Below, piece after piece: positions 5,071 through 56,304 of a DNA stretch of 64,000 bases (its first letter is position 1; every line of letters begins with the position of its first letter). The translations under genes were made by a program, and so were the position numbers. Origin of the DNA: a virus. The stretch lies in the IMG/VR virus record IMGVR_UViG_3300025030_000041, positions 1 to 64,000 of that record. The stretch is one strand, 5' to 3'. The notes under the pieces were generated by a model that saw only the letters and a list, made by a program, of their open reading frames with translations, had not been told where the DNA came from and did no database searches.

Positions 5071-5080
5071 TAATTATTTA

Positions 5081-5108: not shown

Positions 5109-5195
5109 ATTTGGTGTATAAAAAAGTTTAATATTAAGGGTAAGGGTATTTGAAAGTTTCTACAAGCTACATACGCTTTTAACTATTAGCGACAA

Positions 5196-5450: not shown

Positions 5451-5518
5451 AATTATTTAAGTTTAGTTAATTAAAGGGTCTCCGTTATTAAAAAGATTTT
5501 ACTACAATCTTGGAATAG

Positions 5519-5869: not shown

Positions 5870-5993
5870 GATTTCTAGAGTTTAATTGTTAAACAATAAT
5901 AAAGAACTAATTACAATGTAAAATTAAGCAATAGATTTGATATATAAAAATAAATTTATAATAAAATATATAACTAATTGATACTCAATTTAC

Positions 5994-6557: not shown

Positions 6558-6575
6558 TATTTTCTTATTATTTAT

Positions 6576-9216: not shown

Positions 9217-9268
9217 AGCTTTTCAGTTTTAGTTTTAATTAATATTTAAAATTATAGGATTTGTTTTA

Positions 9269-10141: not shown

Positions 10142-10602
10142 ACGATTTCTAAGTTGTAGTCAAATGAATATTCAGTAATTATATTTTCCGCATGTTTTTT
10201 CTCAAAATAAATTTTTCCATTATATTTTGAGAAAACTGGGTATTTTGTGTTTTGATTAGATTTATCAATATAGTTATACCCAGATAAATATAAATCGTTA
10301 TTAATTAATTTTATTTTAAATATTTTTTTATGAATGGCTTCTCCAATAGTATCTATAATAACTCTATTGTCTATACTCATATTATTTTCTAATTTAAATC
10401 TTTTAATTTCAATACCATTTTCAGGCTTATTCATAAATATTAAATTAAAATTATTAATACGACATGATAAACACCATTTTTCATTATAAATTATTGATGG
10501 GGTTGAAGTATCTCCTATTAGCCGTACTGATAAATTTGCTAAAGAAAAAAATTCTTTTATTAAAAAATTTCTTTTATCTATTAAACTGTCATTATTATTC
10601 AT
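10138..10602 (-). CDS. Hypothetical protein
   Basis: ORF, overlaps the start of the deacetylase gene. Confidence 0.35.
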   Translation of the reverse strand: MNNNDSLIDKRNFLIKEFFSLANLSVRLIGDTSTPSIIYNEKWCLSCRINNFNLIFMNKPENGIEIKRFKLENNMSIDNRVIIDTIGEAIHKKIFKIKLINNDLYLSGYNYIDKSNQNTKYPVFSKYNGKIYFEKKHAENIITEYSFDYNLEIV

Positions 10603-10613
10603 ATATACTTAAC

Positions 10614-14494: not shown

Positions 14495-15391
14495 ATGGCA
14501 AAAATAACAAATTTATCTGATTTAATTATAAAAAAGTTTGAGAATAGTACTGATGTTAAATTAGTAAACACGTTTGCTGATATTAGTGATTATATATCAA
14601 CGGGTAATTACTTATTAAATGCTCAACTTAGTGGAAGTTTATTAGGTGGAATACCTAATAATAGAATTACGACTTTAGCCGGTGATAGCGGGACAGGTAA
14701 AACATATTTAGCTCTTAATATTTGTAGGGAAGCCCAGAGAAATGGATATTTTATAGTATATGTAGATACTGAAGCTGCAGTATCAAAAGATATTATGATG
14801 GATTTTGGTATAGATACTGACACATCTAAATTATTATATGCTGGAATATCAAATATTGAAGACTTCGGATTACTTGGTAATAATATTATACAAATATCGA
14901 AAGACCAAAGAGCTAAGGGAGAGACTCCTAAGATATTAATTATATTAGATTCCCAAGGTATGCTAAATTCAAAAAAAGAAATAGATGATTTAAATAAAGG
15001 AAAGAATGCATCTGATATGGGAACTAGAGCTAAAGAATTAAGAAAATTATACAGAAATATAACTTATGAATTTAGTAATAACGGAATTACCTTTATTCCA
15101 TTAAACCACACTTACTGTTTAACGAGTGGGCATAATATTCAAATGGGAGATAATTCTTTAAAAGATATTAAAGATATACAAATTGGTGAATATGTAAAAA
15201 CGTTAGAAGGTAATAAAGAAGTAATAAATACATTTAATTTTGAAAATTTAGAGTTAATAGAATTAACTTTGTCAGATAATACAGTTGTTAAATGTACAAA
15301 AGACCATAAATTTTTAGTATCTAGTAATAATGAATTAATTTGGAAAAATGCAGATGAATTAAATGAAAATGATGAAATTTTAAGTATATAG
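14495..15391 (+). CDS. uvsX: UvsX recombinase N-terminal extein (aa 1-207) fused to the N-terminal half of a split intein (IntN, aa 208-298)
   Basis: Collinear with T4 UvsX (LSGSLLGGIP..., Walker A GDSGTGKT, ...LDSQGMLNSKKE..., ...IPLNHTY). At Cys208 the sequence switches to a Hint N-terminal domain (CLTSGHNIQMGD..., block B TKDHKF). The ORF ends with tandem stops TAG TAA. Confidence 0.85.
   Translation: MAKITNLSDLIIKKFENSTDVKLVNTFADISDYISTGNYLLNAQLSGSLLGGIPNNRITTLAGDSGTGKTYLALNICREAQRNGYFIVYVDTEAAVSKDIMMDFGIDTDTSKLLYAGISNIEDFGLLGNNIIQISKDQRAKGETPKILIILDSQGMLNSKKEIDDLNKGKNASDMGTRAKELRKLYRNITYEFSNNGITFIPLNHTYCLTSGHNIQMGDNSLKDIKDIQIGEYVKTLEGNKEVINTFNFENLELIELTLSDNTVVKCTKDHKFLVSSNNELIWKNADELNENDEILSI
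15116..15388 (+). mobile_element. UvsX intein 1, N-terminal half (IntN, about 91 aa; standard split position)
   Basis: Starts at the Cys immediately after extein HTY. Contains block A (CLTSGHN) and block B (TKDHKF), then ends at tandem stop codons. Confidence 0.75.
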
Positions 15392-15417
15392 TAAATTATC
15401 TTAACTAATTAAAAAAA

Positions 15418-15543
15418 ATGAAAGACATGAATACAAAAAAAATTATTAAAAAACGTATAATTGAAAAACAAGAAAAAGTTTTTGATATTGAAGTAAAAGA
15501 TAGTCACCATTATTTTTTAGAAAACGGAGTGATTAGCCATAAT
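15418..15543 (+). mobile_element. UvsX intein 1, C-terminal half (IntC, 42 aa)
   Basis: Own ATG 26 nt after the IntN stop, in a different frame. Classic IntC architecture resembling the DnaE and gp41-1 split-intein C-halves. Confidence 0.75.
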
Positions 15544-16524
15544 TCAGGTGGAATGTATGAAGCAACTAAGCAAGGCGGCGGGTGTTTAATACCAGGGACT
15601 AAGATATATACATTCAATAATGTATTAAAATCAATAGAAGGTGTTGAGTCTGGTGATTATGTTAAAACCTTATGTGGATATAAAGAAGTTTTAGAAACAT
15701 ATACATTTGAAAAATCTACTATAAAAATAGAATTTGAAGACACCACAAATATAATATGTTCAGAAGACCATCGTTTTTTAATTTCAGGAGACTATACAAT
15801 TGAAAGTAATTGGAAAAAAGCTAAAGACTTAGCTAATAATGAAAATATTTTAAAAATTGAAAATAATAATATTTTCAATTTAAAAATTAAAAATATTAAT
15901 CATTTATATACACAAAAAGTTCATGATATTAGTGTTAAAGATGTACATCATTATATATCTGAAACTGGTATAATAAATCATAATTCAGGAAATACCTATT
16001 CTGCATCAACTATTTTATTTTTATCTAAGTCATCTCTTAAAGAGGACGGCCAAACTAAAACGGGAATTGTAGTAAGATCTAAAACACAAAAAAATCGATT
16101 AGCTAAACCAATTGATATAGAATTCCATATTAGTCATATTAGCGGAATGAATCCGTATGTTGGATTACAAGATTATATTAGTTGGGAAAATTGTGGAGTA
16201 GTTAGAGGTACTCTACTTACTAAAAAAGAATTTGAAAAAGATAAGTCAAATAACCAAAAAACATATCATGAATTCGAACACAATAATGAAAAGTATTATG
16301 TAATTCCGTCTGATAAAGCTAGAAATATAGTTATAAGAGACGGATGTAAAGAAGTTCCATTTAAAAAACTATTTACATCAGAAGTATTTACAGAAAATGT
16401 TATTAAAGAATTAGATGAAAAAGTAATACGACCTAAATTTAAATATGATAAAATTAAAGACTTATTATCTAATGAATTAACTGAAGTTTTTGGTGATACT
16501 ACAGACGATGAATCAGACGAATAA
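15418..16524 (+). CDS. uvsX: C-terminal half of split intein 1 (IntC, aa 1-42), then the UvsX C-terminal extein, which is interrupted by a second contiguous mini-intein (aa 56-189)
   Basis: IntC MKDMNTKKIIKKRIIEKQEKVFDIEVKDSHHYFLENGVISHN|S has blocks F/G and a terminal HN followed by +1 Ser. Extein SGGMYEATKQGGG and ...SGNTYSASTILFLSK...GIVVRSKTQKNR...IDIEFHISHISGMNPYVGLQDY are collinear with T4 UvsX. Intein 2 is CLIPGTKIY...SEDHRF...VHDISVKDVHHYISETGIINHN|S. Confidence 0.85.
   Translation: MKDMNTKKIIKKRIIEKQEKVFDIEVKDSHHYFLENGVISHNSGGMYEATKQGGGCLIPGTKIYTFNNVLKSIEGVESGDYVKTLCGYKEVLETYTFEKSTIKIEFEDTTNIICSEDHRFLISGDYTIESNWKKAKDLANNENILKIENNNIFNLKIKNINHLYTQKVHDISVKDVHHYISETGIINHNSGNTYSASTILFLSKSSLKEDGQTKTGIVVRSKTQKNRLAKPIDIEFHISHISGMNPYVGLQDYISWENCGVVRGTLLTKKEFEKDKSNNQKTYHEFEHNNEKYYVIPSDKARNIVIRDGCKEVPFKKLFTSEVFTENVIKELDEKVIRPKFKYDKIKDLLSNELTEVFGDTTDDESDE
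15583..15984 (+). mobile_element. UvsX intein 2: contiguous mini-intein (about 134 aa) with no endonuclease domain
   Basis: Cys1, block B SEDHRF, C-terminal block G IINHN, +1 Ser. The flanking sequence restores the UvsX alignment. Confidence 0.8.
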
Positions 16525-18300: not shown

Positions 18301-19470
18301 ATGAAACTTATAAAGATTGTAGACGATGTGCCAAGAATTAGTAAATTTGGTGTATATGACGAATATGAGTGTCAGTTGTGTGGAAAAAAATGTAAAAAGA
18401 AAAATAGTTTATCTAAGCATTTGTCTACTATTCATGGTTTAAACAATAATGATAAACGTAAAGACTATTATGATAAATACTTAAAAGTTGATGGAGAGGG
18501 AATATGTGTAATATCAGGCAAACCTACTAAATTTATTAATTTTAGTGGTTATAACAAATATATAAATACTCCAGAGGTTAATAAAATAAAATTAAATACT
18601 AAAGGGATAACTTATTTAATGAAAGTTAAAAAACTTTCATACGACGACGCATTAATAGAAAGACAAAATATTGTAAAAAGAAATTCCGAAGGGGTTAAAA
18701 AAGCATTTAGTGAAAAAATAAAGAAAGATCCACTTTGCTGGAATAAGTCTAGCATATATTGTAAAGAATACTGGATTAATAAAGGATATTCTAAAGAAGA
18801 CTCTATTCAATTAGCCAATGATAAGATAACTAAAAATAGAGAAAAACTACAAAAAATTTTAAAAGACGATCCGTCTTATATGAAAAATAAATTAAATACA
18901 TCTTTAGACTATTGGTTAAAAAAGACAAATGGAAATGAAGAAGAAGCTAAAAAATTATTATCTGAACGCCAAACTACTTTTAATTTAGAAAAATGTATAG
19001 AAAAATATGGCGAAGACGACGGAAGAAAAAGATGGGTAGAAAGACAAGAAAAATGGTGTAAAAACTATAAAAAAAGTAATTATTCTAAAATTAGTCAAGA
19101 ATTATTTTGGAGTATTTATGATAAATTAGAGGTTTCTTATAAAAATAATAAATCTATATATTTCGCGGAATTATTAAATAATCGTAAAGACGAAAGCGAA
19201 AAAAATAATGAATACCGATTAAAATTAAAAAATAGGGTTATTATTCCAGATTTTTTCATTTTAGAAAATAAAAAAATAATAGAATTTGATGGAGTGTATT
19301 GGCATAATGAACATAAAATAAAGTATCCAAATCAAAACCGAGATAATGAAAAGTCTAACGACTTAATTAATGAGGGTTATTCTATTTTAAGGATTGTTGA
19401 GGACTTGTATTATAAAAATAAAGAAGAAATAGTTAAACAATGTTTAGAATTTATATATAAGGATTTATGA
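18301..19470 (+). mobile_element. Free-standing homing endonuclease gene between the split-intein halves: N-terminal C2H2 zinc finger plus C-terminal Vsr-like / DUF559 (PD-(D/E)xK) nuclease domain
   Basis: YECQLCGKKCKKKNSLSKHLSTIH = C-x2-C-x12-H-x4-H zinc finger. C-terminal IIPDFFILENKKIIEFDGVYWHNEHK resembles the Vsr/DUF559 catalytic core. The position between intein halves matches the 'fractured gene' arrangement reported from marine metagenomes. Confidence 0.6.
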
Positions 19471-19829
19471 GTAAAAATAATAGTGCTATACGTAAATTTA
19501 TAGATTCAATTAATATTGATGAGTACGATGTATTAACTGATACTGGGTGGGAAGATATTAAATCTATTAATAAGACTATAAAATATAGAGCATTTAGAGT
19601 AGAAACTAAATCTTTTTATTTAGAAGGGGCCGACGATCATATTATTTTTGATAAAGATTATAATGAAATATATTTAAAAGAATTAAGTATTGGCGATAGT
19701 GTATTAACTGAAAATGGAATTGAAATAGTTTTAAATATAAAAGATTTAGAATATTCAGATAATATGTATGACTTAGAAATTAATTCTGAAAATCACAGGT
19801 ATTATACGAATGGTATTTTAAGTCATAAT
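19467..19829 (+). mobile_element. gp41 split intein, C-terminal fragment (IntC, 121 aa)
   Basis: Starts with an ATG that overlaps the HEG stop (ATGA) and ends ...ILSHN immediately before the extein. Confidence 0.7.
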
Positions 19830-20690
19830 AGTACAATTCTTTCAAATTTTGCTGCAAATTCAATACGTAATGGAAAAAATGCAGCCGTTATTACACTAGA
19901 GTTATCTGATAGGAAATATATGAGGCGAGTGGGGGCTAATCTTTTAAATATTACAACTGGCGAATATAAAGATTTTGATGAAACTAGAAAAGATTTAATT
20001 AAACATAAACTTGATAATTTTTATGGAATGTTAGGGTGGCCTGCTGGTAATTTATGGATTAAAGAATTTCCGACTGGAACTGCGTCATTTATTGATATTG
20101 AAAATTCTTTGCTTAGGCGTGAAGATAAAACTGGAATTAAATATGACTTAGTAATAGTTGACTATCTTAATTTGATGAAAAGCGATGGCAATTCTAATCA
20201 AAATATGTATGAAAGAATAAAACGAATATCAGAAGGATTAAGAGCAATAAGCCAAAGAAATGAATGGTGTGTAGTATCAGCAACACAAGTTAGAAAAGAG
20301 TATTTTGATAAAGACGTTTTAGGGATGGATGCTGCAGCAGAAAGTAGTGGATTAATTGCAACAGTCGACTCTTTATTTGCTGCCTCTAGGGATTCTCTTA
20401 GTGATATTGCAAGAATAGAATTAATAGCAAACAGAGATGAAGGATATACCGGTAGTTCTTGTAATTTTAAGATGCAATTTAAAAATGCAAAGATGATTGA
20501 GACAAATGAGTTTCAGTATTATGGCGATGAAGACGGCACTAACTTAGAAAAAGAGATGCTAGAATCTTATAAGAAAAATGAAATTATAAGTGCTATTGCA
20601 GGACAATCAATAGGAACTAATATTGAAATACCTGAAGTTAATAAAAATAATAAAGAAACAGATTACGAATCAATTTTAAATTCTATTTAG
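19467..20690 (+). CDS. 41: Long IntC (aa 1-121) of the atypically split intein, fused to the gp41 helicase C-terminal extein
   Basis: IntC carries block B (GADDHIIF) and blocks F/G (MYDLEINSENHRYYTNGILSHN) followed by +1 Ser. The extein STILSNFAANSIRNGKNAAVITLELSDRKYMRRVGANLL... aligns with T4 gp41 SLGLCSLAADYLQLGHNVLYISMEMAEEVCAKRIDANML... Confidence 0.8.
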   Translation: MSKNNSAIRKFIDSINIDEYDVLTDTGWEDIKSINKTIKYRAFRVETKSFYLEGADDHIIFDKDYNEIYLKELSIGDSVLTENGIEIVLNIKDLEYSDNMYDLEINSENHRYYTNGILSHNSTILSNFAANSIRNGKNAAVITLELSDRKYMRRVGANLLNITTGEYKDFDETRKDLIKHKLDNFYGMLGWPAGNLWIKEFPTGTASFIDIENSLLRREDKTGIKYDLVIVDYLNLMKSDGNSNQNMYERIKRISEGLRAISQRNEWCVVSATQVRKEYFDKDVLGMDAAAESSGLIATVDSLFAASRDSLSDIARIELIANRDEGYTGSSCNFKMQFKNAKMIETNEFQYYGDEDGTNLEKEMLESYKKNEIISAIAGQSIGTNIEIPEVNKNNKETDYESILNSI

Positions 20691-31109: not shown

Positions 31110-32177
31110 TTATTTATTAAATCGATTAAAGTATTGATATGATATTAAATTGTATTTTGCTTTACCAACAAAATCTTTTAAGGTTTTAGCATTACAATAG
31201 CTCATTGCTGATTTTAAATAATCAACAAAGTTATTAGTCCATCCTTCTACTGTATATTCTACTTTATTATATTTTACTATGCCTTCACTTGTAGTTAATT
31301 TAAGTTTACCCCAAGATTGTTGAACCTCTTTAGTAGACATTCCTCTATATTTTTTATATAGAGGAATTTTATTTTTAAATAAAAAATGTTTAATATCTGG
31401 AAATTTATCAATTTTTATTTTTTTAAATAATAAAGTATCTCCGCATGATTCTATTGATTTATTAAAAATAGAACCTACCATAACGTAGTCGGCTCCTAGA
31501 CATATTACTTTTATAATATCACTGAAATTTTTCATGCCGCCATCTGCCACAATTTTAGCAGGTGAGCTTAACGTACAACTTATATCATAGCATTCTTTTA
31601 TTAAAGATCCCATTGGATAACCAATTGAAACGTTAGAGGACGTCGTGCATGCCCCACCGGACCCGATTCCGCACCGTATATAATCAGCACCAGCTTCGCT
31701 TAATATTCTATAAGTTTCAGGATTAGCGATATTTCCAACCATTAGCATAATAGAATTTCCATACATGTCTTTTGCTAATTTAACAATTTCTAATAACTTG
31801 GACATATGCCCATTTGCCATATCTATTAAAATATATTTATGGTCTATCGTTATTTTATTACGAATATATAAAGTAGTAAACTCATCTAATGAATATGACT
31901 TAAAAATTGGCATAGTAGTCATTAGCTTTGATATATCTATATTGCATCCTCTTGGAATACAAACTGGAATTTTATTCTTAATAAATATATCAATATTATT
32001 TTTATCTATTACAGTATCCATTGGAGCAGCTATAATAGGTAAATAATTTTGACATATTAAATTTAAGTGATTATAATATGGATTAACTTGCTTTCTTGAA
32101 TTTATTTTAGAAATGGCATCTGGCATTATTAAAATGTCATTTAAATCAAATTTTATTTTGTCTATATTAAAATCCAT
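31110..32177 (-). CDS. IMP dehydrogenase / GMP reductase family protein; the size and the absence of a CBS pair favour a GMP reductase-like enzyme
   Basis: PIIAAPMDTV, GADYVMVG and the active-site loop GIGSGGACTT (catalytic Cys) of the IMPDH/GuaC TIM-barrel family. The gene is contiguous, with no intein. Confidence 0.7.
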   Translation of the reverse strand: MDFNIDKIKFDLNDILIMPDAISKINSRKQVNPYYNHLNLICQNYLPIIAAPMDTVIDKNNIDIFIKNKIPVCIPRGCNIDISKLMTTMPIFKSYSLDEFTTLYIRNKITIDHKYILIDMANGHMSKLLEIVKLAKDMYGNSIMLMVGNIANPETYRILSEAGADYIRCGIGSGGACTTSSNVSIGYPMGSLIKECYDISCTLSSPAKIVADGGMKNFSDIIKVICLGADYVMVGSIFNKSIESCGDTLLFKKIKIDKFPDIKHFLFKNKIPLYKKYRGMSTKEVQQSWGKLKLTTSEGIVKYNKVEYTVEGWTNNFVDYLKSAMSYCNAKTLKDFVGKAKYNLISYQYFNRFNK

Positions 32178-33756: not shown

Positions 33757-35430
33757 TTATAAATTTGTTTCTATTTCAATATCGCTAAAATTTCTTTCGT
33801 ATATTATATTATATTGTTTATTAAAAAGTTCTTTTGGTAAAATATTATGGCTTACTACAAATAAGTTCATATCAGTAGTGTTTATAAAATCTTTTAATAT
33901 TAAACTAACTTTTTCTATACTTCTATGATCTAAACTAGAAAATATTTCATCTAAAAATAATAAATTAATTGATGGTAATTTCATTTTAATAAGTTTCAAA
34001 ATAGATATAATAATAATAATATCCATCTTTTTTCTTTGTCCAGTTGATAATGAGTCTGATGAAATTTCAAATCCAATTTGTCTTATTACTGGATTGAATT
34101 CTTCATCAAAGAAAAAATCAAATTCATATTCTAGATTGTCTATTAGCTCTTTAATATAGGTATTAAACGTTGGAAGTATTTGTGATAACAATATTTTTTT
34201 AATTCCATTTTCACCAAGTATTTCTCCAGTAATAGAGTATATATTATTCTTTTGTTCTATTATTGTTTTTGATTTTTTTAATTCTTTTTGTTTATTTTCT
34301 AAATTAGAAATAATATTATTTAGACTTTTAACTTGTTCATTCGTATTAATCTTAGAATCTATTTCAGCAACTCTATTAATAATTTGTTTTATAGAACTTT
34401 CAGTTTTCCAGTGTTCTTCTTGTTTTATATTTTTATTTTTATTTTCAGTTTCTAATTTTTTTTCATAATCTGTTAAAGATAGTTTTAATTTGGAAATATT
34501 CTTTTTTCTTTCTTCTATAAATTCTTTAATTGACTTGCGTATTTCTTCATGGAAATCGCCATGCAAATCACTTTGGCAATGTGGACACTGTCTTTGCTCT
34601 AGAAATTTTAATTTATTATTATCTGATGTATTTTTATATTCTAATTCATTAATTTCCTTTGTAATTATATTAATATCGCTTTTTATTTTATTAACTTTAT
34701 TATTTAATTCAGTATATTCACTGGCAATTATATTTTTAGTATTAGTTAATTCATTTTTTTTATTTAATAATTCTTCTTTTTCTTTTGCTAATCCATCTTC
34801 AACTTGTTTTATAAGATTTTCTTTTTCTTGTATTGTACTACTAATTTGAGTTGTATTTGAGTCTAATTGAATATCTATTTTATTAATAGACGATTTAACG
34901 TCTTTTACTTTTTCTTTTAAAATATCATTCATTAAATTAATAAGGTCATACCCAAAAATCTTATCAATTATTTTTTTTTTGTCAGTATTATTAAGTTTAA
35001 TAAAACTTTTAAAATCATTAACTGAAAGAGAAATTGTATTTGTAAATATATTAAACGGTAATTTTAATAATTCATTCTCTATATAACTATTAATATTTCT
35101 TTTATCTGGTATATCATAAACTTCTCCATTTATTTTAAGTAATAAAAATCCAGGGTCTAACCCTCTTTCTATTTCTATTACTTGTGAAGATTTAGAAATA
35201 AATTTAGTATAACACCATAAATTTTTATTAATTCGATTTGGTAAATCTTTGTTTTTACGACTAGCACATTTGCCATATAAAACATATGAAATAACATCTA
35301 AAATTGAGCTTTTCCCGCTTCCAGATTGGCCTAATATAACATTAAATTCTTTATCAGTATTGAAATATATTGTCTGTTTTTTATTTCCATATGATGCAAA
35401 ATTTTTCCAAGATACTTCTAATAGTTTCAT
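33757..35430 (-). CDS. 46: gp46-like recombination ATPase (SbcC/Rad50 family)
   Basis: N-terminal Walker A GQSGSGKSS, long central coiled coil with a CPHCQSDLHG zinc-hook-like motif, and a C-terminal ABC signature LSTGQRKK followed by the D-loop LLFLDEIFSSLD. Confidence 0.8.
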   Translation of the reverse strand: MKLLEVSWKNFASYGNKKQTIYFNTDKEFNVILGQSGSGKSSILDVISYVLYGKCASRKNKDLPNRINKNLWCYTKFISKSSQVIEIERGLDPGFLLLKINGEVYDIPDKRNINSYIENELLKLPFNIFTNTISLSVNDFKSFIKLNNTDKKKIIDKIFGYDLINLMNDILKEKVKDVKSSINKIDIQLDSNTTQISSTIQEKENLIKQVEDGLAKEKEELLNKKNELTNTKNIIASEYTELNNKVNKIKSDINIITKEINELEYKNTSDNNKLKFLEQRQCPHCQSDLHGDFHEEIRKSIKEFIEERKKNISKLKLSLTDYEKKLETENKNKNIKQEEHWKTESSIKQIINRVAEIDSKINTNEQVKSLNNIISNLENKQKELKKSKTIIEQKNNIYSITGEILGENGIKKILLSQILPTFNTYIKELIDNLEYEFDFFFDEEFNPVIRQIGFEISSDSLSTGQRKKMDIIIIISILKLIKMKLPSINLLFLDEIFSSLDHRSIEKVSLILKDFINTTDMNLFVVSHNILPKELFNKQYNIIYERNFSDIEIETNL

Positions 35431-36560
35431 TCCTCAGACATTATTAGGTTTTTATTCATTTCGCTAGCCTCTTTATATAACTTTTCAAAATAATTAGATA
35501 CAATTGTTTTAGTATCAGTATCTACTTTAATTGAATCTAAAAATAAATTAACAGCATCAAATGTATTTAAATTTTTTATATCAACGTTTTTTAATGCGTC
35601 ATTAATTTCAATATTTTTTTCACTATCATAAGGAAAAAAATCTATTTTTCTAATTTTAAAATCTTTAATTAATTCTAAAAACTGACTTATTATAAATTTT
35701 CCACTATACTTATTATCTACATAAATATCAACTAAATTATTTTTTAGTAAGGACTCGGATTCTTCTAAAGATAATTCTATTAAATCATGTAAATTCGTTT
35801 TAATAAAAACTGGTGAATACTTATTTTCTATAAATTCTTCTTTAAAATTATTACCAGTAAATTTAAGGGTATACCATCCTTTTTGATTATTACAATCGCT
35901 TCTTTCCATTGCGTATGGAATACCTGTATAAACTACCCAATCTTTTTCTTGTCTATAATGAATATGACCAGAAAATATCTTTTTAAATTTACGTATATTT
36001 TTTAGGTTTAATCCTTGGTCTATTATTCTACTTTTATCAAATTTCATATTTTGAATATCAGCATGACATAATAAATACTCACAATCTTTACTATATTCAT
36101 TAATTATATTTTCAAATTTTTCATAGTCATGTTCGTATGGCATCATGAAAAATTTATTATTGTTAATTTCAAGAATATCATAACTTTCAATAACATGAAT
36201 ATTAGTAGATAATAATTCAAATTGCTTAACTGAATTAATTTCAGTCGTGGACTTATTAAACAAATCATGATTACCTAAAATAATAATTACTTTATTAAAA
36301 TATCCAGATAACTCTTTAAATAATTTTTGAGCTTCGTATAACACCTTAATATTTAAAAATTCTCTTGAATGAAAAATATCGCCCATTAAAAATAAAGTGT
36401 CCTCATCTTTATTATAATCAGATGTTTTTATAATAGTAGGAATAAAATAATTTCTCCAAAAATCCAATTGAATATTTAACCATTCAGATGAGTTACTTCT
36501 AATTCCAAAGTGTAAATCTCCAACTAAATGTAAATTTTTAATTTTATCTAATTTAATCAT
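35427..36560 (-). CDS. 47: gp47-like recombination nuclease (SbcD/Mre11 family metallophosphoesterase)
   Basis: N-terminal phosphoesterase motifs (LHLVGDLHFG, GDIFH, GNHD). Its stop overlaps the start of the gp46-like gene. Confidence 0.8.
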   Translation of the reverse strand: MIKLDKIKNLHLVGDLHFGIRSNSSEWLNIQLDFWRNYFIPTIIKTSDYNKDEDTLFLMGDIFHSREFLNIKVLYEAQKLFKELSGYFNKVIIILGNHDLFNKSTTEINSVKQFELLSTNIHVIESYDILEINNNKFFMMPYEHDYEKFENIINEYSKDCEYLLCHADIQNMKFDKSRIIDQGLNLKNIRKFKKIFSGHIHYRQEKDWVVYTGIPYAMERSDCNNQKGWYTLKFTGNNFKEEFIENKYSPVFIKTNLHDLIELSLEESESLLKNNLVDIYVDNKYSGKFIISQFLELIKDFKIRKIDFFPYDSEKNIEINDALKNVDIKNLNTFDAVNLFLDSIKVDTDTKTIVSNYFEKLYKEASEMNKNLIMSEE

Positions 36561-36735
36561 TATTTTTTATTTAATACATTTAATGTTACACAATGTGTAG
36601 TCTCATCATAAACAAATTTTACTCCATACTCAATTAAAATAATATTAACATCTTTTATAAACTCACGTATGCAGTATGGACATTTCCCATCTATATTTTC
36701 TATGGCTGGAGTTAATCTCCTAAGAATTTCAGTTA

Positions 36736-37320
36736 TCATTGTGTTATTAAATTTTTAATAGAATCTTTTAATGAGTCTTCATTAATTGATTTAATTAATT
36801 TGTTTGTTATTATATTTAAAAATTCGTCTTTGTTTTCACTTGAATTATACATCATTTTTAAAACATCAATTGGAGGTAATTTTGATTTTATTTTAATAGG
36901 AAAGTCAAATTCATTAATTTGAAACATATCAAATATATCAACCTTATTTTCTGTTTTAATTTCAGGTTTAGTCGTGGTATTTTGAATTGTTTTTTTAATA
37001 GCATCATTTAAATTCTTACTCATAACTGGAGTTTCAATAGGCGGATTGTTAATATCATAAACTTCAGTTAAATGGTCGCTTAGTATTTCTAAATTTATTT
37101 TAGAGCCATCCTCAAATATTAATCTAGTCATTCCTTGAGAATTTTTAACATCATTACATTTAACAATAATACCTAATTTTAATGGATCTATTGGTTTAGT
37201 CCATTGAAATGATTTTCCAATATAGTGTTCTCTTAACTCTGTGGTTTTAGTATTAGTTTCTAAATTCATTTTAAATATTTTTTTTAGGAAGTTTATTAAA
37301 AAATCATTATTTTTAATCAT
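36736..37320 (-). CDS. Hypothetical protein
   Basis: ORF. Confidence 0.35.
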   Translation of the reverse strand: MIKNNDFLINFLKKIFKMNLETNTKTTELREHYIGKSFQWTKPIDPLKLGIIVKCNDVKNSQGMTRLIFEDGSKINLEILSDHLTEVYDINNPPIETPVMSKNLNDAIKKTIQNTTTKPEIKTENKVDIFDMFQINEFDFPIKIKSKLPPIDVLKMMYNSSENKDEFLNIITNKLIKSINEDSLKDSIKNLITQ

Positions 37321-38130
37321 TTAAAGTATTGCACAAATGTTAGTATATCTGTCATTTTCACCTATTACAACTGGATGTAATTCTCCTATTCCAGAATATC
37401 CACACCCACTGTCGGCTAATACTACTGTTTTAGGTACGCCACTGTGTATATAGTTATGAAATCTTGGAAAATTTATTCCTTCGTCTAATCTATTATAATG
37501 TCCGTGTACTGACACCAAATATGGTTCAGGTACTTTAAATATAGTATCTTTCTTTTGATTTCCAAAATCCGAGGATTTTCCCCATAATAAGTCAGAATCA
37601 CCTATATTTTTTATATCACTAAGAGGAGCATGACTAAAAAATATAGTATTAGTAGAATACCTAGTTTTTCCATATTTCTTTAAAAAAGAATAATATTCAC
37701 TATTTAATATTTTTTCTCTCCAATCACTCACTTTACTTGAAATATTATAATGATTATCAAATACTACGCCAAATAAATCTTTGCATGTTATAATTCCATC
37801 ATTATACTCCCATAAATCACTCCATTTTATGAGTTTATTATCTAACAATATTGAAGTATCTTCAGCCGTTCCTATAATAAACATATCATGATTTCCAAGT
37901 AAACATATTGCGTTCCTATTAATAACATAGTCTTCAATCTTTTTTAATACTGCACCTGAATGATTACCTCTATCAATATAGTCACCTAAAAATACATACT
38001 GAATAGTATCATATTTAGATATTATACCAAACTTTCTTTGAAATTTTACCCAGGCATTACATGTTTCTAATGCAAAATTTAATTTGAAAATATCTCCATG
38101 TATATCAGGAATAGCTATATAATAATTCAT
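37321..38130 (-). CDS. Ser/Thr protein phosphatase of the PPP / lambda-phosphatase-like metallophosphoesterase family
   Basis: DIHGD, GDYIDRG and GNHD motifs in the canonical order. Confidence 0.7.
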   Translation of the reverse strand: MNYYIAIPDIHGDIFKLNFALETCNAWVKFQRKFGIISKYDTIQYVFLGDYIDRGNHSGAVLKKIEDYVINRNAICLLGNHDMFIIGTAEDTSILLDNKLIKWSDLWEYNDGIITCKDLFGVVFDNHYNISSKVSDWREKILNSEYYSFLKKYGKTRYSTNTIFFSHAPLSDIKNIGDSDLLWGKSSDFGNQKKDTIFKVPEPYLVSVHGHYNRLDEGINFPRFHNYIHSGVPKTVVLADSGCGYSGIGELHPVVIGENDRYTNICAIL

Positions 38131-38191
38131 TTTATCAATTAAAATTTATACAATATCTTATACTAGATTTATAGTAAAATGTTTTATAAAT

Positions 38192-39628
38192 TTATTTATC
38201 TAATTCATTTAGCCTATCAGACAATGCCTTACGCAAAGCTTTATTTTCGAGTCTTTCATTATAAAAATAATTTAATATTTTTCGTGAGACTGAATCAATA
38301 TCCATCCTAAAATATGTATCAAATGCCGTTTTACATATTTTTCTATCTATTAGCTCCTCAATAGATAAATTAAGGCCTTTCCCTAAATATGTATCAGGTG
38401 ATATATTATTGCTACAAATTATGTTCGGATATAGACTAGAAAAGTCCTGACATACTACAGTTTTATAATATCCAGGAATCGGTTCCTTAACGAATGCGCC
38501 TTCATATTTTGGGCCACCTTCATTTTTTTGATACTTTGAGTTATATATTAGTTGTTTTTCTTCTTCTGTTTTTTCAGGTACTTTTAAATTTTGTTCTATG
38601 TATTTTCTAAATATTAGAATTTCACTTATAAATACTGGGCTATTATATTTATTAATATCACATATACTTAAGTTTACCATTTCAAATACAACATCAAGAA
38701 GAAATTTAGAGTCTTCTATTTCTTTTACTAAAATAGAGTCGATAGCATTGTATATTGCAAATTTGCGATAATTTGTTTTATACATTTCTAGTATATTTTC
38801 ATTATCATTTTTAAATTTTTTAACTCCAAGTACTTCTTTTGAAATATAGTCTAATGTATAATTCTCTACAATTTTTAATGGCGACCTGCTTCTAAATAGT
38901 TCAAGGTAGTCTATAACAGCAGTATGAGCTGGAACTAAATATTTTGTTACTCTTTTATTTGTTGCTATATTTTTTGTTGGATTTATTTTTAAATTTTCAC
39001 AGCGTTTCATTAGATATTGCCAGTCAAAATTTAAGAAATTCCATCCAGTTAATAGCGGTATTTTTGGTAGAAATTTATGAAAGAAATACTCTAACATTTC
39101 TATTTCAGTTTTGAACCAAAGATATTTTAAAGTATAGGTTTTTAAATTTGGATTACTTTTTTTAAGATATGTATTCATTTCATTTTCCATATCTTGTTCT
39201 TGACTTCTCAAGTCTTCTCGACACGACAATATATATGCAATATTAGATTCGTTTACTACTGATATTAGAAGAACTTGGTATTTTGCTTCTGATGGTTCTG
39301 GGAATTCATTATTTTCTCCAGTTTCAGTCTCAATATCACAATAATATTTTTTAGGAGTATTAAATTCTGACATTTTATTTTTTTCATCTAGTGTGAGATT
39401 ATTATATAAGAATTCTTCTTGTCTAAAACGTCCTAAATACTCTGTAGGTTTTTTTCTTACATTTTTATTATCCCAACTTTTTAATCCAGTATTTTCTTCA
39501 CAATATTCGTAGTTATATAAATCAGAACTTGGTATATTTTTAATAATAAAGTCTATTTCTTTATTTTTATTAATGTATGATATATACATTTTACTTTTAT
39601 ACTTATTAAATTCAACTCCTACTACCAT
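38192..39628 (-). CDS. 43: Family B DNA polymerase N-terminal portion: N-terminal domain plus 3'-5' exonuclease plus polymerase motif A. It terminates before motifs B and C, so it resembles a split 43A-type gene
   Basis: Exo I YYCDIETE, Exo II NFLNFDWQYL, Exo III YNAIDSILV and pol motif A VCQDFSSLYPNII. The ORF then stops about 75 aa later, with no KxxxNSxYG or YGDTDS motif. Confidence 0.8.
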   Translation of the reverse strand: MVVGVEFNKYKSKMYISYINKNKEIDFIIKNIPSSDLYNYEYCEENTGLKSWDNKNVRKKPTEYLGRFRQEEFLYNNLTLDEKNKMSEFNTPKKYYCDIETETGENNEFPEPSEAKYQVLLISVVNESNIAYILSCREDLRSQEQDMENEMNTYLKKSNPNLKTYTLKYLWFKTEIEMLEYFFHKFLPKIPLLTGWNFLNFDWQYLMKRCENLKINPTKNIATNKRVTKYLVPAHTAVIDYLELFRSRSPLKIVENYTLDYISKEVLGVKKFKNDNENILEMYKTNYRKFAIYNAIDSILVKEIEDSKFLLDVVFEMVNLSICDINKYNSPVFISEILIFRKYIEQNLKVPEKTEEEKQLIYNSKYQKNEGGPKYEGAFVKEPIPGYYKTVVCQDFSSLYPNIICSNNISPDTYLGKGLNLSIEELIDRKICKTAFDTYFRMDIDSVSRKILNYFYNERLENKALRKALSDRLNELDK

Positions 39629-45183: not shown

Positions 45184-46482
45184 TTATTTGTTTTTAATTA
45201 ATTCTTTTAAATCATTAATAATTATATGAGCTGACTTTTCATATGACTCGTAATCATATCCTATTTTTTTACAAAGACTACTATAGTTAGTATACTCGGT
45301 ATTATTTGTATTTATTATTTCAACTGCTTTTATAATACATTCTGATAATGAGTTAACCTCAATTTCATTAGATTCATTTACTTCACAAAAGAATGGGTAA
45401 TTTGTATTATTTGAATGTTTAAATTTATACCAATAATTATTAACTTTTGGCATAATTGTAATATTTCCTGCTATTAGGGCTTCACAATGAGTTACTCCGC
45501 CATGAACCTCATTTGTAAATAAATTACAACTCACACGTGCTCTATTTATAAAAGTTAAATAATCTTCTCTTGACCAATTTAAATTATTAGGTAGTACCTC
45601 TACTGTATTATTAGATAAAGTATTAATTAAACTTAATTGTTCTTCTGTTACCTTTCTAGTTGGATTAAGCATTATTGCTTTAAATGGTATATTAGTTTTA
45701 GATTTTGCAAGTCCTACTGCTTCAGCGAACTTATGATAATTATTATATCTATTCGCTGAATCTGATATTCTATTACCAAAATAGATAGTTGTTTCATCAA
45801 ATTTCGAAACACTAGAATATTTTAATACTTCTTTAGCCCATACCCCAATATTCCAGCTTGTTGTTTTTTTAATTAAATTTCTATTTTTATAAAATGTATC
45901 ATACGCGTCTAACGATTCTCTTTCATTTTCTTTAGATTGAAATGCTGTTAAATTTGAATTATTAAAGCTTTCCATTTGTCTTTCAAAATATGTAATCTGT
46001 TCTGACACTTTTTTAGATACAGGAGTATCCATAAAATAATTAGTACTAACAATTGGAATATTTAATTTTAATTCATAAAATAAAGTATTCCAGTTTTTAG
46101 TTAATGTATTTTGGTCATTAATCATTACGTCACATTCTTTTAATAAATTATATTGTTTTTTCCAAAATATATAATCAAAATGGTATCTAGTATTAGACGG
46201 CCCAACTGGAGAATCAAATTCTATAAAAGTTATTCTAGAGTGATATTTTTGTTCAAACATACTATAGTATGTCCAATACTCTTTGGATAATCTAATGTCT
46301 GGAATAGCAATTAAAAAAGATATATTACTATCATTTTCTAAAATTTCTGATATTATTCCAATACATATATTCATACATGCGTCTGTACTTAGTATAAAGT
46401 TCTTTCCATCATTATTACTTATTTGAGTAGCATAAAATACTTTCATAACACTTTTTTTGAAACAATATATTTGAAAACTCAT
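45184..46482 (-). CDS. Putative glycosyltransferase (GT-B-like C-terminal half); candidate DNA or surface-glycan sugar transferase
   Basis: C-terminal NEVHGGVTHCEALIAGNITIMPK resembles the E-x7-E / nucleotide-sugar binding region of GT-B enzymes. The call is weak. Confidence 0.35.
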   Translation of the reverse strand: MSFQIYCFKKSVMKVFYATQISNNDGKNFILSTDACMNICIGIISEILENDSNISFLIAIPDIRLSKEYWTYYSMFEQKYHSRITFIEFDSPVGPSNTRYHFDYIFWKKQYNLLKECDVMINDQNTLTKNWNTLFYELKLNIPIVSTNYFMDTPVSKKVSEQITYFERQMESFNNSNLTAFQSKENERESLDAYDTFYKNRNLIKKTTSWNIGVWAKEVLKYSSVSKFDETTIYFGNRISDSANRYNNYHKFAEAVGLAKSKTNIPFKAIMLNPTRKVTEEQLSLINTLSNNTVEVLPNNLNWSREDYLTFINRARVSCNLFTNEVHGGVTHCEALIAGNITIMPKVNNYWYKFKHSNNTNYPFFCEVNESNEIEVNSLSECIIKAVEIINTNNTEYTNYSSLCKKIGYDYESYEKSAHIIINDLKELIKNK

Positions 46483-52264: not shown

Positions 52265-52804
52265 ATGAGAAATATTAAAGACTTAAAGCCAAATAAAAAT
52301 GGTAGATTTAATCAAGGATTTTTTAATCCAGTAAATAAAGAAAAATATAGTGGGGACTTGTCTAGCCTCCCGATATATAGGTCATCCTGGGAATATAAGT
52401 TTATGCATTTTTGTGATATGAATCCTAATATTGTAAAATGGAGTAGTGAAAAAATTGCAATACCTTATATTTCGCCTATAGATATAATAAAAGAAAATTT
52501 AACTCCAACATACAAAGATATTAAATACCGAAATTATTATGTAGACTTTATAATAAAAGTAAAAACTCCAAATGATACCAATGTTACATGGTTAGTTGAA
52601 ATAAAACCTCTTAAACAAACTAAAAAACCTGAAAATATAAAAGGAAATACTACTACCAAAAAAATCAATAATTATAATAAAGATATGATTACATATTTAG
52701 TAAACAAAGCTAAATTTGAAGCTGCTCTTAAATACGCTAAATCAAAAAATATGAAATTTGGAGTTTTAACAGAAGATAAAACGGGTAATTTCACAATAGG
52801 ATAA
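52265..52804 (+). CDS. 4: Head completion protein, T4 gp4-like
   Basis: YRSSWEYKFMHFCDMN matches T4 gp4 FRSSWELKVMNFLDEH. Confidence 0.55.
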   Translation: MRNIKDLKPNKNGRFNQGFFNPVNKEKYSGDLSSLPIYRSSWEYKFMHFCDMNPNIVKWSSEKIAIPYISPIDIIKENLTPTYKDIKYRNYYVDFIIKVKTPNDTNVTWLVEIKPLKQTKKPENIKGNTTTKKINNYNKDMITYLVNKAKFEAALKYAKSKNMKFGVLTEDKTGNFTIG

Positions 52805-53418
52805 TGGAAAGATTTGATGATTTTTTTAAAGAGTTTATAGATGCGTCAGGATCCATTGGAGCGGCAAAAAACGAATCTGAAAAAATATATAACGAAAAAT
52901 ACGTAAATAACGGAAAAAACTATATAAAAACTTTACCTTCTAAACTTATAAGTAACATGTTTTATACTTTTTATTATAATGAAAAAATTGATTCAATAGC
53001 CCTTGCTCAAACTGAAAACAAGTATATAGACAAAAGACCAATTATATTAAGTTTAGGAAAAGACCAATCAGGTAAAGAGATAGGATTAAACTTTAATGTT
53101 ATTCCATATCCTCTTAAACTAAAATTATTAACAATATACTGGAAAACTATGTATAAAGGATATATTTCATATAATATAGACGAAGAATTATCTAACTGGA
53201 AAATTGTACCTATAAATAAAAAAACAATTTTAGATTTATTTAATATTAATTTAGGACCTGCTATAAACTCATATGATAAAAAGAAAATGGTTAAACTTAA
53301 AATATTAGAATGGGAAGATTTAACTATATTACCGCTATTATATACTAAAAGTATAGTCACACATAAAAACATTGGAATTAACCAAATTTATGACATGATT
53401 TTAAAGAATGCCAGTTAA
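52804..53418 (+). CDS. Hypothetical virion-associated protein (possibly a gp53-like baseplate wedge, judged by position only)
   Basis: ORF abutting the gp4-like gene. Confidence 0.3.
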   Translation: MERFDDFFKEFIDASGSIGAAKNESEKIYNEKYVNNGKNYIKTLPSKLISNMFYTFYYNEKIDSIALAQTENKYIDKRPIILSLGKDQSGKEIGLNFNVIPYPLKLKLLTIYWKTMYKGYISYNIDEELSNWKIVPINKKTILDLFNINLGPAINSYDKKKMVKLKILEWEDLTILPLLYTKSIVTHKNIGINQIYDMILKNAS

Positions 53419-54473
53419 TGAAAAATCCAAAAAAACTAGTAGAACTAGGAATATCCCACTACCATACTGGAAATTATAAAGAAGCTTTAAATTTTTATAA
53501 AAAAGCAATACCCTATCTATACTATAATGATTTAGGAATACTATATTATAACATGGGACTTTGCTATTTATCATTATATTCTTATGATAATGCAGAACGC
53601 TTATTTAAAAAATCTTTTTATGAATATGACTATAAATCGTCTGGATATGAACTTGCCTTGTCTTATTTGTTTAATAATAAATTAAATGAAGGTTTATCAT
53701 TATACCAGTATAGATATTACGGAGATAGATTTAAATTTCCAAGATTACCGATTACCCAATTTACAAATATTGAACAACTAAAAAATAAAAACGTTTTAGT
53801 ATTAAATGAACAAGGATTTGGTGATGAAATATTATTTTCTAGAGTATTACCAACATTAGATACAATAGTAAATAACTGTCATTATCAGATTTATCCAGAA
53901 ATGTTTACATTATTTCAAAATAATTTTAAATTAAATAATATAACTCTTTTTCAAGAACGACAATTTGATTTAAAATTTATTCAACAGTTTGATGGATGGA
54001 TAGCATCAGGAGATCTTTTTAGCTCATATACATTAAACTATGGTACACGACATTATACTTTTAATAATACAACAAACAAGTCTAATATTAAAAAGATAGG
54101 TATTGTTTGGAAAACTAATGCAATATCTCCTAATTCAAATTTAAGGTCAATCTCTTTAGAAAAAATAAAAAAACAATTATCATTTAATACTATAGAATAT
54201 CATAATCTACAAAAAGATGAAAATATAGATTGGATGATTAAACATACGATTAATAATTTTCAAGATACAACATCTATAATAAATGAAATGGATTTAATAA
54301 TATCAGTTGATACCTCTACTGTACATTTAAGTGCAAGTATGAATAAACCTACACTTTTAATATACGATACATATTTAGATTGGAGATGGAAATATAATTT
54401 TTATTCTACAATTACTCCAGTTCAAATTGATAATTTAATAAATGAAATAAATAAAATAATAAAAAATAATTAA
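53418..54473 (+). CDS. TPR-repeat protein with a glycosyltransferase family 9 (heptosyltransferase)-like C-terminal domain
   Basis: N-terminal TPR-like repeats (YHTGNYKEALNFYKKAI...). KNVLVLNEQGFGDEILFSRVLPTL resembles the GT9 N-terminal G-x-G-D motif region. Tentative. Confidence 0.3.
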   Translation: MKNPKKLVELGISHYHTGNYKEALNFYKKAIPYLYYNDLGILYYNMGLCYLSLYSYDNAERLFKKSFYEYDYKSSGYELALSYLFNNKLNEGLSLYQYRYYGDRFKFPRLPITQFTNIEQLKNKNVLVLNEQGFGDEILFSRVLPTLDTIVNNCHYQIYPEMFTLFQNNFKLNNITLFQERQFDLKFIQQFDGWIASGDLFSSYTLNYGTRHYTFNNTTNKSNIKKIGIVWKTNAISPNSNLRSISLEKIKKQLSFNTIEYHNLQKDENIDWMIKHTINNFQDTTSIINEMDLIISVDTSTVHLSASMNKPTLLIYDTYLDWRWKYNFYSTITPVQIDNLINEINKIIKNN

Positions 54474-54474
54474 C

Positions 54475-56304
54475 ATGGCAGGATTCTTTGATTCGTTTAG
54501 CAGTACATCCTTTGGCAATGCATTAGATAAATTATCTAGATTTGGAATGAAATATGACGACCTTCTACTAACTAATTCAAAATCAATTGGTTACATACAG
54601 GGAGAATTAAAGGCCAAGATGTCAGGTCAGTATGTTGGTAATGATTTATTGAAGTATACTTTGGCATTAAGTGATACGACTAGTGCTTTAAAGAATAAGG
54701 CTATTGCATTTTTTCAATTAGATTATAAGAGTAGAATAGAAAGATTAAGAGAGGTTGCATCAAATTCTGAGATTGAGTTTGCGATAGAGACTATTGCTAA
54801 TGATTTAGTTGTATATGATGATAATAATAGGTTTTGTTATCCAATCGATTTAACAGGTGGATTTGATGAAAAATTGGATAAAGGAGAAAAACCTAAAACT
54901 CATAAGGTTGGTAAAGAGAAAGAAATAGATAAAAAGAAAATTAAATTTTCTGATAAAGTATTAGAAGGATATGAGAGGGCATTTGATAAAATATATAATG
55001 CATGGGGATTTAATATTGGCGACAGCGCATGGATGTATGCGTATCAATATTTAATAGATGGTTTTTTAACATTTGAGATAATTTATGATAATCCGTCTAA
55101 TCCAAAGGAGATAATTGGATTTAAAGAAATTGATCCTAGTACAGTATCACCGAGAGTAGAGAAGGGGTCTAATGGAAAACTACATTTAGAGTGGATACAG
55201 TTAGACAAATCAACAGGAAAACAGATAATATTAAAAGATAGTCAAATTATATATATATCATTTTCTAATGCATTTAAAACTAGAAGAATTAGTTATGTTG
55301 AACGGCTAATTAGATCTTTCAATTTAGTTAGGGTAGTAGAAAATAGTAAAATTATTTGGCATACGATGAATGCCCCAATACGATTAAAAACTACTGTTCC
55401 TATTGGAAGTAAGTCAATTCAAAAAGCGTGGCAAGATGTTGTTGAATACAAAAATTTATATAAAGAAGATATTTTCTTTAATCAAGATAGCGGAGAAGTT
55501 ACAGTAGACGGAGAGGCTAAACTTTTATATTATAAAAACTATGTAATACCTCAAAATGATCAAGGGCAGAATATTAATATAGAAGCTTTAGAATATCCTG
55601 GACCAAATTTAAGTGATTCTCAGTTATTAAATTATTTTAGTAATAAATTAAAAATGGATACTAAAATACCGTTTAGCCGATTTGATTCTAAAAGCGGTAT
55701 GGGAGAATGGAAAATTGGAGCTGATGGCATTAGTCGAGATGAAATACGGTATGGCAAATTTATAAGAAGGCTTAGGACAGTATTTCAAGAGATAATACTA
55801 AAGCCTGTATATTTACAGATGTGCATTGATATACCCGCTTTACAAAATGATGCTGAATTTAAAAATAGTATAGGCGTTAGATTTAATAATGATAACTTAT
55901 TTGAAGAAATGAAAGACGCTGAAGTAAATAAATTAAGAGTTGCTACAGTTAATGATTTATCGGCTGTTAAAAATGATATTGGCCAGCCATATTTTTCAAC
56001 AGAATATTTATTAAGAAAATTTGGTAAGCTAACTGATGATGATATAAAACAAAATGATGCATATAAACGACGTTTTTTAAGGCCTGATGAAGAACTAAAA
56101 GGTTCTGAAGAATTAGGCGGAGAATTTGGCGGCGGATTTCCAGAAACTACAGCTGGAGGAGAAGGCCTAGCTGGGCCTGATTTAGGAGGAGAGCCTACTC
56201 CAACTGGAACAGCTGAGGTATCAGCTCCTGGAACAGAAACTGCTGGAGCGGGTGGTGGATCTGAAACAGCTGAAGCTGGATCTGAAACAACCGGAGCTTT
56301 TTAA
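54475..56304 (+). CDS. 20: Portal vertex protein (T4 gp20-like) with an unusual Gly/Thr/Glu/Ala-rich C-terminal tail
   Basis: ETIANDLVVYDDN / YLIDGFLTFEIIYD / DGISRDEIRYGKFIRRLRTVFQEIILKPVYLQMCID match T4 gp20 SEIVSDAIVYEDD / WYVDSRIFFHKIID / [37 protein letters not shown]. Confidence 0.8.
   Translation: MAGFFDSFSSTSFGNALDKLSRFGMKYDDLLLTNSKSIGYIQGELKAKMSGQYVGNDLLKYTLALSDTTSALKNKAIAFFQLDYKSRIERLREVASNSEIEFAIETIANDLVVYDDNNRFCYPIDLTGGFDEKLDKGEKPKTHKVGKEKEIDKKKIKFSDKVLEGYERAFDKIYNAWGFNIGDSAWMYAYQYLIDGFLTFEIIYDNPSNPKEIIGFKEIDPSTVSPRVEKGSNGKLHLEWIQLDKSTGKQIILKDSQIIYISFSNAFKTRRISYVERLIRSFNLVRVVENSKIIWHTMNAPIRLKTTVPIGSKSIQKAWQDVVEYKNLYKEDIFFNQDSGEVTVDGEAKLLYYKNYVIPQNDQGQNINIEALEYPGPNLSDSQLLNYFSNKLKMDTKIPFSRFDSKSGMGEWKIGADGISRDEIRYGKFIRRLRTVFQEIILKPVYLQMCIDIPALQNDAEFKNSIGVRFNNDNLFEEMKDAEVNKLRVATVNDLSAVKNDIGQPYFSTEYLLRKFGKLTDDDIKQNDAYKRRFLRPDEELKGSEELGGEFGGGFPETTAGGEGLAGPDLGGEPTPTGTAEVSAPGTETAGAGGGSETAEAGSETTGAF

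Follow-up and report, generated by a model that had tools for sequence, protein, structure and literature searches.

The window analysed here is a 64,000-nt stretch of viral DNA (positions 1 to 64,000 of the IMG/VR record IMGVR_UViG_3300025030_000041), and its minus strand carries, at 38192-39628, an open reading frame (ORF) for the N-terminal half of a family B DNA polymerase (PolB) of the T4/RB69 type. The ORF is closed, running over 478 codons from an ATG start to a TAA stop, and is a real and complete gene, not a truncation artefact. It very probably encodes the gp43A-like subunit of a split polymerase, with the partner subunit encoded elsewhere; the two kinds of gene are called N-half and C-half below. 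The gene and its motifs are located as follows:

38192..39628, minus strand: N-terminal half of a T4/RB69-type family B DNA polymerase (gp43A-like), complete gene, 478 aa (ORF, Pfam, RB69 match, AlphaFold2 (AF2) and Foldseek)
39329..39337, minus strand: Exo I motif D98-I-E100 (D98, I99 and E100 invariant in alignments of 30 and 42 N-halves)
39011..39040, minus strand: Exo II motif N197-FLNFDWQYL-206 (G195, W196, N197 and D202 invariant in the same alignments)
38738..38752, minus strand: Exo III motif Y293-NAI-D297 (Y293 and D297 invariant in the same alignments)
38417..38446, minus strand: motif A D395-FSSLYPNII-404, with the catalytic Asp and the steric-gate Tyr400 (regular-expression match at 38446; D395, Y400 and P401 invariant)
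38198..38290, minus strand: predicted first fingers helix, residues 447-477, with R459 and K463 (AF2 helix with a predicted local distance difference test score (pLDDT) of ~90; R459 invariant; profile alignment)

From its start the protein has an N-terminal domain and a 3'-5' exonuclease domain, followed by the beginning of the palm, which includes motif A, and by the first fingers helix. Pfam DNA_pol_B_exo1 (PF03104) was matched over residues 84-223 (E 2.5e-12) and DNA_pol_B (PF00136) over residues 356-468 (E 2.5e-12), the latter at profile positions 24-140 of 453 only. Pfam, the translation and the alignments of relatives bear out the N-terminal domain, the three exonuclease motifs and motif A that the original prediction, made from the letters of this DNA, had reported. 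All the catalytic residues expected on an N-half are kept (Exo I, II and III, D395/Y400 and R459/K463). The best solved relatives of the window protein are the RB69 and T4 gp43 polymerases; against RB69 gp43 the E-value was 4.6e-25 for the window protein with phmmer and 3e-66 for the N-half family profile. An AF2 model built with 42 homologues had a mean pLDDT of 87.9 and a predicted template modelling score (pTM) of 0.86, and its top Foldseek matches were RB69 gp43 chains (E 2.5e-23), with about the first half of the target covered. The template modelling score (TM-score) between the model and RB69 gp43 was 0.64 by query length and 0.37 by target length. The sole low-confidence stretch of the model, residues 365-398, leads into motif A; low confidence would be expected there for a palm strand modelled without its sheet partners.

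Motif B, motif C and the thumb are not present on the window polypeptide, where the coverage of PF00136 ends at position 140 of 453, and the window protein is therefore not a complete polymerase alone. The ORF had been said to stop about 75 residues after motif A without motif B or C, and this was accurate: 74 residues separate motif A from the C-terminus, and then comes the TAA.

The break point could be mapped by alignment to gp43. The profile of the N-half family spans residues 111-503 of RB69 gp43 and then ends. Motif A of the window protein is aligned with RB69 D411-LTSLYPSII, and further along the profile consensus '...LtdlynkRkeakk...' stands opposite RB69 '...ITKVFNQRKEHKG...', with 'ynkRkeak' opposite 'FNQRKEHK'. 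From this profile alignment, R459 and K463 of the window protein are therefore equivalent to RB69 R482 and K486, which contact the gamma-phosphate of the incoming deoxynucleoside triphosphate (dNTP) (PMC3061061). The conserved fingers arginine is 19 residues from the C-terminus of the N-half, and the AF2 chain terminates in one long helix of 31 residues (447-477), which is taken as the first helix of the antiparallel fingers pair. The C-terminus of the window protein falls at the same alignment position as the end of gp43A of Aeromonas phage 44RR2.8t, and residues 1-421 of a stand-alone C-half (P0161) align with 44RR gp43B from the first residue. On RB69 gp43 the N- and C-half families meet at about residues 505-520, with no domain missing or added. 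These alignments place the split at the finger tip, as in gp43A/gp43B of the Aeromonas phages. The break at RB69 residue 503 and the end shared with 44RR gp43A agree with the earlier description of the ORF as a 43A-like half of a split family B polymerase.

Conservation of the gene was examined among its relatives. The identical protein is encoded on eight independently assembled contigs from several samples of one groundwater project (PRJNA268031), of which the longest has 265,665 bp. The best 120 homologues among 5.8 billion proteins were almost all of 457-510 aa, and the 80 nearest IMG/VR relatives were closed ORFs without exception (80/80), of 457-500 aa and with a median of 467. Hundreds of relatives end at the same point, and the N-terminus of the ORF agrees with those of its homologues. 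The relative P0002, which is 76% identical, ends 3 residues beyond the end of the window protein. In comparison with P0002, the ratio of nonsynonymous to synonymous substitution rates (dN/dS) was 0.15 for the whole gene and ~0.29 over its last 80 codons (where dS reached saturation, at ~1.2-1.5), and by this measure the N-half gene appears to be under purifying selection.

A truncated pseudogene, or a full-length gene obscured by an assembly error, a frameshift or stop recoding, is a very unlikely source of this ORF. Metagenome assemblies can be chimeric, and stop codons are recoded in some huge phages, Lak phages included. However, the eight independent contigs with an identical protein, the end point shared by hundreds of relatives and the apparent purifying selection all argue against such an artefact. 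In addition, the TAA is followed in frame by TGA and TAA, and no polymerase-like coding sequence was found in any frame over the next 47 kb. The original prediction took the gene to end at this point, and no continuation by correction of a frameshift or stop was found near 38130-38200, which holds only a 61-nt spacer and the start of a phosphatase gene. The region after the gene is arranged as follows:

38192..38194, minus strand: TAA stop of the N-half (read from the sequence; TGA and then TAA are next in frame)
38131..38191, minus strand: 61-nt A+T-rich spacer before the next gene (no coding continuation, no RNA-family match)
37321-38130, minus strand: metallophosphatase gene (ORF list, Pfam)
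36736-37320, minus strand: unknown ORF (ORF list)
36560-36739, minus strand: 59-aa ORF (ORF list)
35427-36560, minus strand: gp47/Mre11-like gene (ORF list, Pfam)
33757-35430, minus strand: gp46/Rad50-like gene (ORF list, Pfam)

The metallophosphatase, the unknown ORF and the gp47-like and gp46-like genes are those that had been listed downstream of the polymerase. This region, 33757..38130 on the minus strand, is the place where close relatives would carry the C-half.

Restoration of a downstream exon by RNA splicing was also considered, with a group I or group II intron, or a large insertion, interrupting the gene. Gene 43 introns occur in T4-like phages (PMC2993671), and polymerase genes split by intervening endonuclease genes have been described in gut jumbo phages (PMC12880540). 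In the 64-kb window, however, no Rfam family reached its gathering score (no tRNA, intron or riboswitch), and none was found at E <= 1 around the junction. The stop is separated from the next gene by 61 nt, and no second exon was found within 47 kb downstream, so that an interruption of this type is extremely unlikely.

Joining of the halves after translation by a split intein (protein trans-splicing) would be a further route to a single polypeptide, and the original prediction had raised a trans-splicing element of this kind as fitting an intein-rich genome. Split-intein PolB has been reported in a jumbo phage (PMC6892783), and intein sequence is present in this genome: the break in the RecA/UvsX gene (14495-16524) falls within an Intein_splicing domain. 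The N-half, however, gave no Hint or intein Pfam match at E <= 0.01. Its homology to polymerases reaches to ~10 residues from the C-terminus, and its tail aligns with 40 other N-halves and with gp43A. The C-halves of relatives begin ~28-55 residues before motif B, with no conserved HN/Cys+1 junction and without the spare 35-130 residues for an intein C-fragment, and on RB69 gp43 the two families meet with no additional sequence between them. With no intein on the N-half and no spare residues at the junction, the proposed joining is not supported and seems highly improbable. The premise of inteins in this genome was correct, given the broken intein of RecA/UvsX, but it has no bearing on the polymerase junction.

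The counterpart of the N-half is a family of stand-alone C-halves. Sphingomonas phage PAU has two annotated polymerase genes: gp105, of 487 aa, is a homologue of the window protein, and gp110, of 404 aa, has the motifs KLSANSLYG and YGDTDS. They are separated by four genes, one of them the sliding clamp (PMC4889955). The same layout is found in Chryseobacterium phage MA9V-1 (genes 135/138) and Tenacibaculum phage pT24 (genes 165/168). Searches seeded with gp110, including a 22-sequence profile, recovered 106 stand-alone C-halves of ~400-460 aa, and when 1.84 billion cluster representatives were searched exhaustively by profile, 664 C-half proteins were returned at E <= 1e-30. The best 150 of these 664 were mostly of 370-480 aa, with motif B beginning 28-55 residues from the N-terminus, and the exhaustive search gave hundreds of 50%-identity clusters of stand-alone halves. 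Exactly one C-half was found in each complete N-half genome examined, namely PAU, MA9V-1, pT24 and the LR75xxxx huge-phage records (six records, representing five distinct genomes).

The distance between the halves varies widely among the relatives. In PAU, MA9V-1, pT24 and ~25 metagenome loci the halves are 2-6 kb apart, on the same strand and with the N-half first. Seven IMG/VR contigs with N-halves ~29-32% identical to that of the window have the same strand and order, with the halves 4-22 kb apart (14.6 kb in IMGVR_UViG_3300042558_003926 and 21.5 kb in 3300044655_003531). Among deposited phage genomes, the best matches of the window protein are the N-halves of huge phages (29-30% identity, E 1e-44 to 1e-51). 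In the huge-phage genomes and contigs the distances between the halves are:

LR756500: 13 kb apart, same strand
LR745206: 101 kb apart, opposite strands
LR756502: 132 kb apart, opposite strands
LR756504: 281 kb apart, opposite strands
LR756501: 618 kb apart as a linear sequence, 115 kb if circular, opposite strands
Four IMG/VR huge contigs: 7.8, 41, 94 and 112 kb apart, mixed strands

The Lak megaphages have the same short N-half (a 473-aa ORF), and a C-half match was found in all of their records (15/15). The halves of known split polymerases had been described as adjacent in the original prediction, which is too narrow: the published T4-like halves are 2 bp to 3 kb apart (PMC3061061), and those of huge phages are separated by 13 to ~280 kb.

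Two further observations concern the arrangement of these genes in relatives. In LR756500.1, a 462-kb phage, the C-half match near 248786-249598 spans query residues 121-408 only and there is a second matching place; this C-half may be interrupted or split further. In two contigs the gene order is a PolB piece, 3-4 small genes, UvsX, DnaB and, further on, gp47 and gp46. This order follows the C-half in L398 (ENA ERZ781397 NODE_5748, 1475-11072) and the N-half in L058 (10001-21446), and rearrangement around the replication module may be the route by which the halves became unlinked.

By analogy with these relatives, a separate C-half gene is likely to be present in the genome of the window. Its genome is of at least 265 kb, of which ~74 kb was inspected. 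Within the window, regular expressions for motifs B and C had no match in six frames, and tblastn of PAU gp110 gave no match. Two C-half profile hidden Markov models run on the six-frame translation of the window detected no C-half, the best match having E = 1.2 with one and no match reaching E <= 1 with the other. One of these profiles is broad and includes the huge-phage type; its positive controls scored E 1e-119 to 1e-139. Among C-half candidates, the 20 with the strongest AT-rich-type amino-acid composition were looked up in their clusters and none could be assigned to this genome, and a scan of JGI metagenome contigs with the C-half profile yielded 47 loci, none of them from this genome. 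The rest of the 265,665-bp contig was not recovered by a scan of IMG/VR with the window protein, and an exact 28-mer was present in no GTDB genome. The candidates P0175 and P0315 were rejected as partners, as they belong to other phages. A 432-aa ORF at 45184-46482 was also rejected, as it matches neither C-half profile and has no Pfam match. By eye, this ORF may be glycosyltransferase-like.

Several points weigh against the assignment of the window protein to a split polymerase with a partner gene. No C-half was found in the window or in its flanks (~9.1 kb on the left and ~2.7 kb on the right), and a partner must therefore lie beyond ~47 kb on the downstream side or ~27 kb on the upstream side, or be absent. 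No C-half was found within 10 kb of the N-halves of P0002 (76% identity), P0005 and P0025 (~35%) either, so that for this sub-clade the pairing is an extrapolation from less closely related phages, of ~30% identity. None of the C-half matches from the gp110-seeded, profile or exhaustive searches could be assigned to this genome. Biochemical evidence for the split PolB family is known only from the Aeromonas phages. The residues directly after motif A are also unusual: at C405-S406 (38411-38416, minus strand) the window protein reads ...YPNIICSNNISPD, position 405 being R in the family consensus and C here, and position 406 being Q in at least 90% of 42 relatives and S here. P0002 reads ...RQF... 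at the matching positions.

An alternative is a lineage without a canonical C-half, in which the N-half would act alone, for example as a proofreading exonuclease or DNA-binding factor, or together with an unrelated polymerase module. The failure to find a C-half in the window or near the N-halves of P0002, P0005 and P0025 fits such a lineage, and an additional split mini-Pol III has been described in Lak-type jumbo phages by Iyer et al. (PMC7824862). On the other hand, motif A, the steric-gate Tyr and the dNTP-binding Arg and Lys of the fingers are conserved, and would be useless without motifs B and C. Every complete N-half genome examined has its one C-half, and only ~74 kb of this genome of at least 265 kb was inspected. 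The loss of the C-half is thus an improbable explanation.

In the two-subunit polymerase that we favour, an ancestral single polymerase gene would have been broken at the tip of the fingers domain. Proofreading would be carried out by the window subunit, which would also hold the N-terminal domain, the palm strand with motif A, and the first fingers helix, whose Arg and Lys bind the triphosphate. The rest of the enzyme, namely the other fingers helix with motif B, the palm motif C and the thumb, would come from a product of ~380-480 aa encoded by a separate gene outside the window. Each chain would be translated on its own, and the two would assemble non-covalently, with no protein or RNA splicing; their interface would consist of the palm sheet that they share and the antiparallel pair of fingers helices. 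The halves could assemble into an active enzyme by analogy with two characterised cases. According to PMC2988022, which cites Petrov et al. 2010, gp43A and gp43B of phage 25 co-purify and polymerise. Pfu polymerase split at the finger tip equals the wild type in chromatography, kinetics and PCR, whether its halves are co-translated or reconstituted (PMC3061061).

The halves might be fully unlinked in the groundwater lineage, with the partner perhaps in another transcription unit or on the other strand, as is seen in the phages of 460-735 kb, and would then form an obligate heterodimer whose subunits are separately regulated or exchanged. We consider this rather unlikely. If it were true, the open finger tip might alter nucleotide selectivity, for example tolerance of modified dNTPs. 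The evidence supports the unlinking alone, and no functional consequence of it.

The gp43A/gp43B split is recorded for Aeromonas phages 44RR2.8t, 25, 31 and 65 and Acinetobacter phage 133 (Petrov et al. 2006, 2010, as presented in PMC2988022 and PMC3061061). The window gene resembles these in being a T4/RB69-type PolB with the break at the finger tip and no intein, with halves that would be translated separately. It differs in that those phages carry 43A and then 43B (with a gap of 49 nt in 44RR), whereas the window sequence has no partner for ~47 kb downstream and ~27 kb upstream, and its protein is only ~25-28% identical to gp43A. The same domain content and break are found in PAU, MA9V-1 and pT24, whose N-halves are of 487-517 aa and C-halves of 404-470 aa. 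These are tailed jumbo phages with a T4-like core, and the gp46/gp47-like and T4-type portal genes of the window suggest the same for its virus. However, PAU, MA9V-1 and pT24 have 2-4 genes between the halves, whereas the window has the phosphatase, two unknown ORFs and the gp47- and gp46-like genes, and no C-half. In the huge phages of Al-Shayeb et al. (LR745206, LR756500-LR756504) and in Lak phages the N-half ORFs end alike, at 472-513 aa. The Al-Shayeb et al. genomes are of 460-735 kb, their records are unannotated and their halves are unlinked, whereas no partner was found in the window or its flanks.

Outside the phages, the PolB halves of Methanothermobacter thermautotrophicus are 85 kb apart (Kelman et al. 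1999, as cited in PMC3061061). This archaeal enzyme likewise consists of two separately encoded family B polypeptides with no splicing, from genes far apart. Its break, according to PMC3061061, is in the palm, ~83 residues C-terminal to the finger-tip position, unlike that of the window protein. Split-intein PolB is known from Nanoarchaeum equitans and has been proposed for Pseudomonas phage MIJ3 (PMC6892783); these polymerases are also in two pieces, but the pieces carry intein halves that are ligated, whereas the window junction has no intein.

The finger-tip split of PolB has been known since 2006, and cultured jumbo phages have annotated PolB halves with a few genes between them; no new mechanism is revealed here. 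A literature search on unlinked PolB halves in huge phages found none, only adjacent or near-adjacent, intein-associated and endonuclease-associated splits. The size of the split family and, in huge phages, the unlinking of its halves over distances of tens to hundreds of kb were thus not found described. This unlinking is a survey-level observation on public genomes and is not demonstrated for the window. It extends the range of the finger-tip split, which is widespread and ancient, with genes up to hundreds of kb apart, and not just a feature of Aeromonas and Acinetobacter phages. A half-length polymerase gene is the normal condition in a very large group of jumbo and huge phages, and its partner is not necessarily a neighbour. 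Annotation pipelines, polymerase phylogenies and marker-gene surveys will label such a gene a partial PolB, and its partner will be missed or mis-paired. The split family also offers a natural system for studying how a replicase copes with, or makes use of, fingers that are permanently open.

Other features of the window were recorded. Its G+C content is ~22-33% throughout, and the sign of the GC skew reverses near 13-14 kb, 30-31 kb and 46 kb, in step with the switches of coding strand. The RecA/UvsX-like gene at 14495-16524 (plus strand) appears broken inside an intein and is represented by two ORFs:

14495-15391, plus strand: ORF of 298 aa, with RecA at residues 10-204 and the N-part of Intein_splicing at residues 240-296 (Pfam)
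15418-16524, plus strand: ORF of 368 aa, 26 nt later and in another frame, with the C-part of Intein_splicing at residues 99-189 (Pfam)

This break could be a split intein, a 'fractured gene' or a frameshifted intein. Further along, a 389-aa ORF at 18301-19470 (plus strand) has a DUF559/restriction-endonuclease-like C-terminus and overlaps by 4 nt a DnaB-like helicase ORF at 19467-20690. The DnaB homologue in the relative L058 has a faint intein match, and a mobile element may have visited the DnaB-like locus, 18301-20690, as well.

Cargo that is unusual for a phage was found on the minus strand in two regions, 854-11942 and 31110-32177:

854-2296, minus strand: Band 7/SPFH protein (Pfam)
3118-3891, minus strand: radical S-adenosylmethionine (SAM) protein (Pfam)
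9269-10141, minus strand: histone-deacetylase-like protein (Pfam)
10614-11942, minus strand: ATP-dependent DNA ligase (Pfam)
31110-32177, minus strand: IMPDH/GMP-reductase-like protein (Pfam)

At 52265-56304 (plus strand), an ORF with a TnsA-like endonuclease N-terminal domain is located a few genes upstream of the T4-type portal gene, and the same arrangement of TnsA-like and portal genes is present in the contig of an unrelated split-PolB phage (locus L314, 17233-21314).

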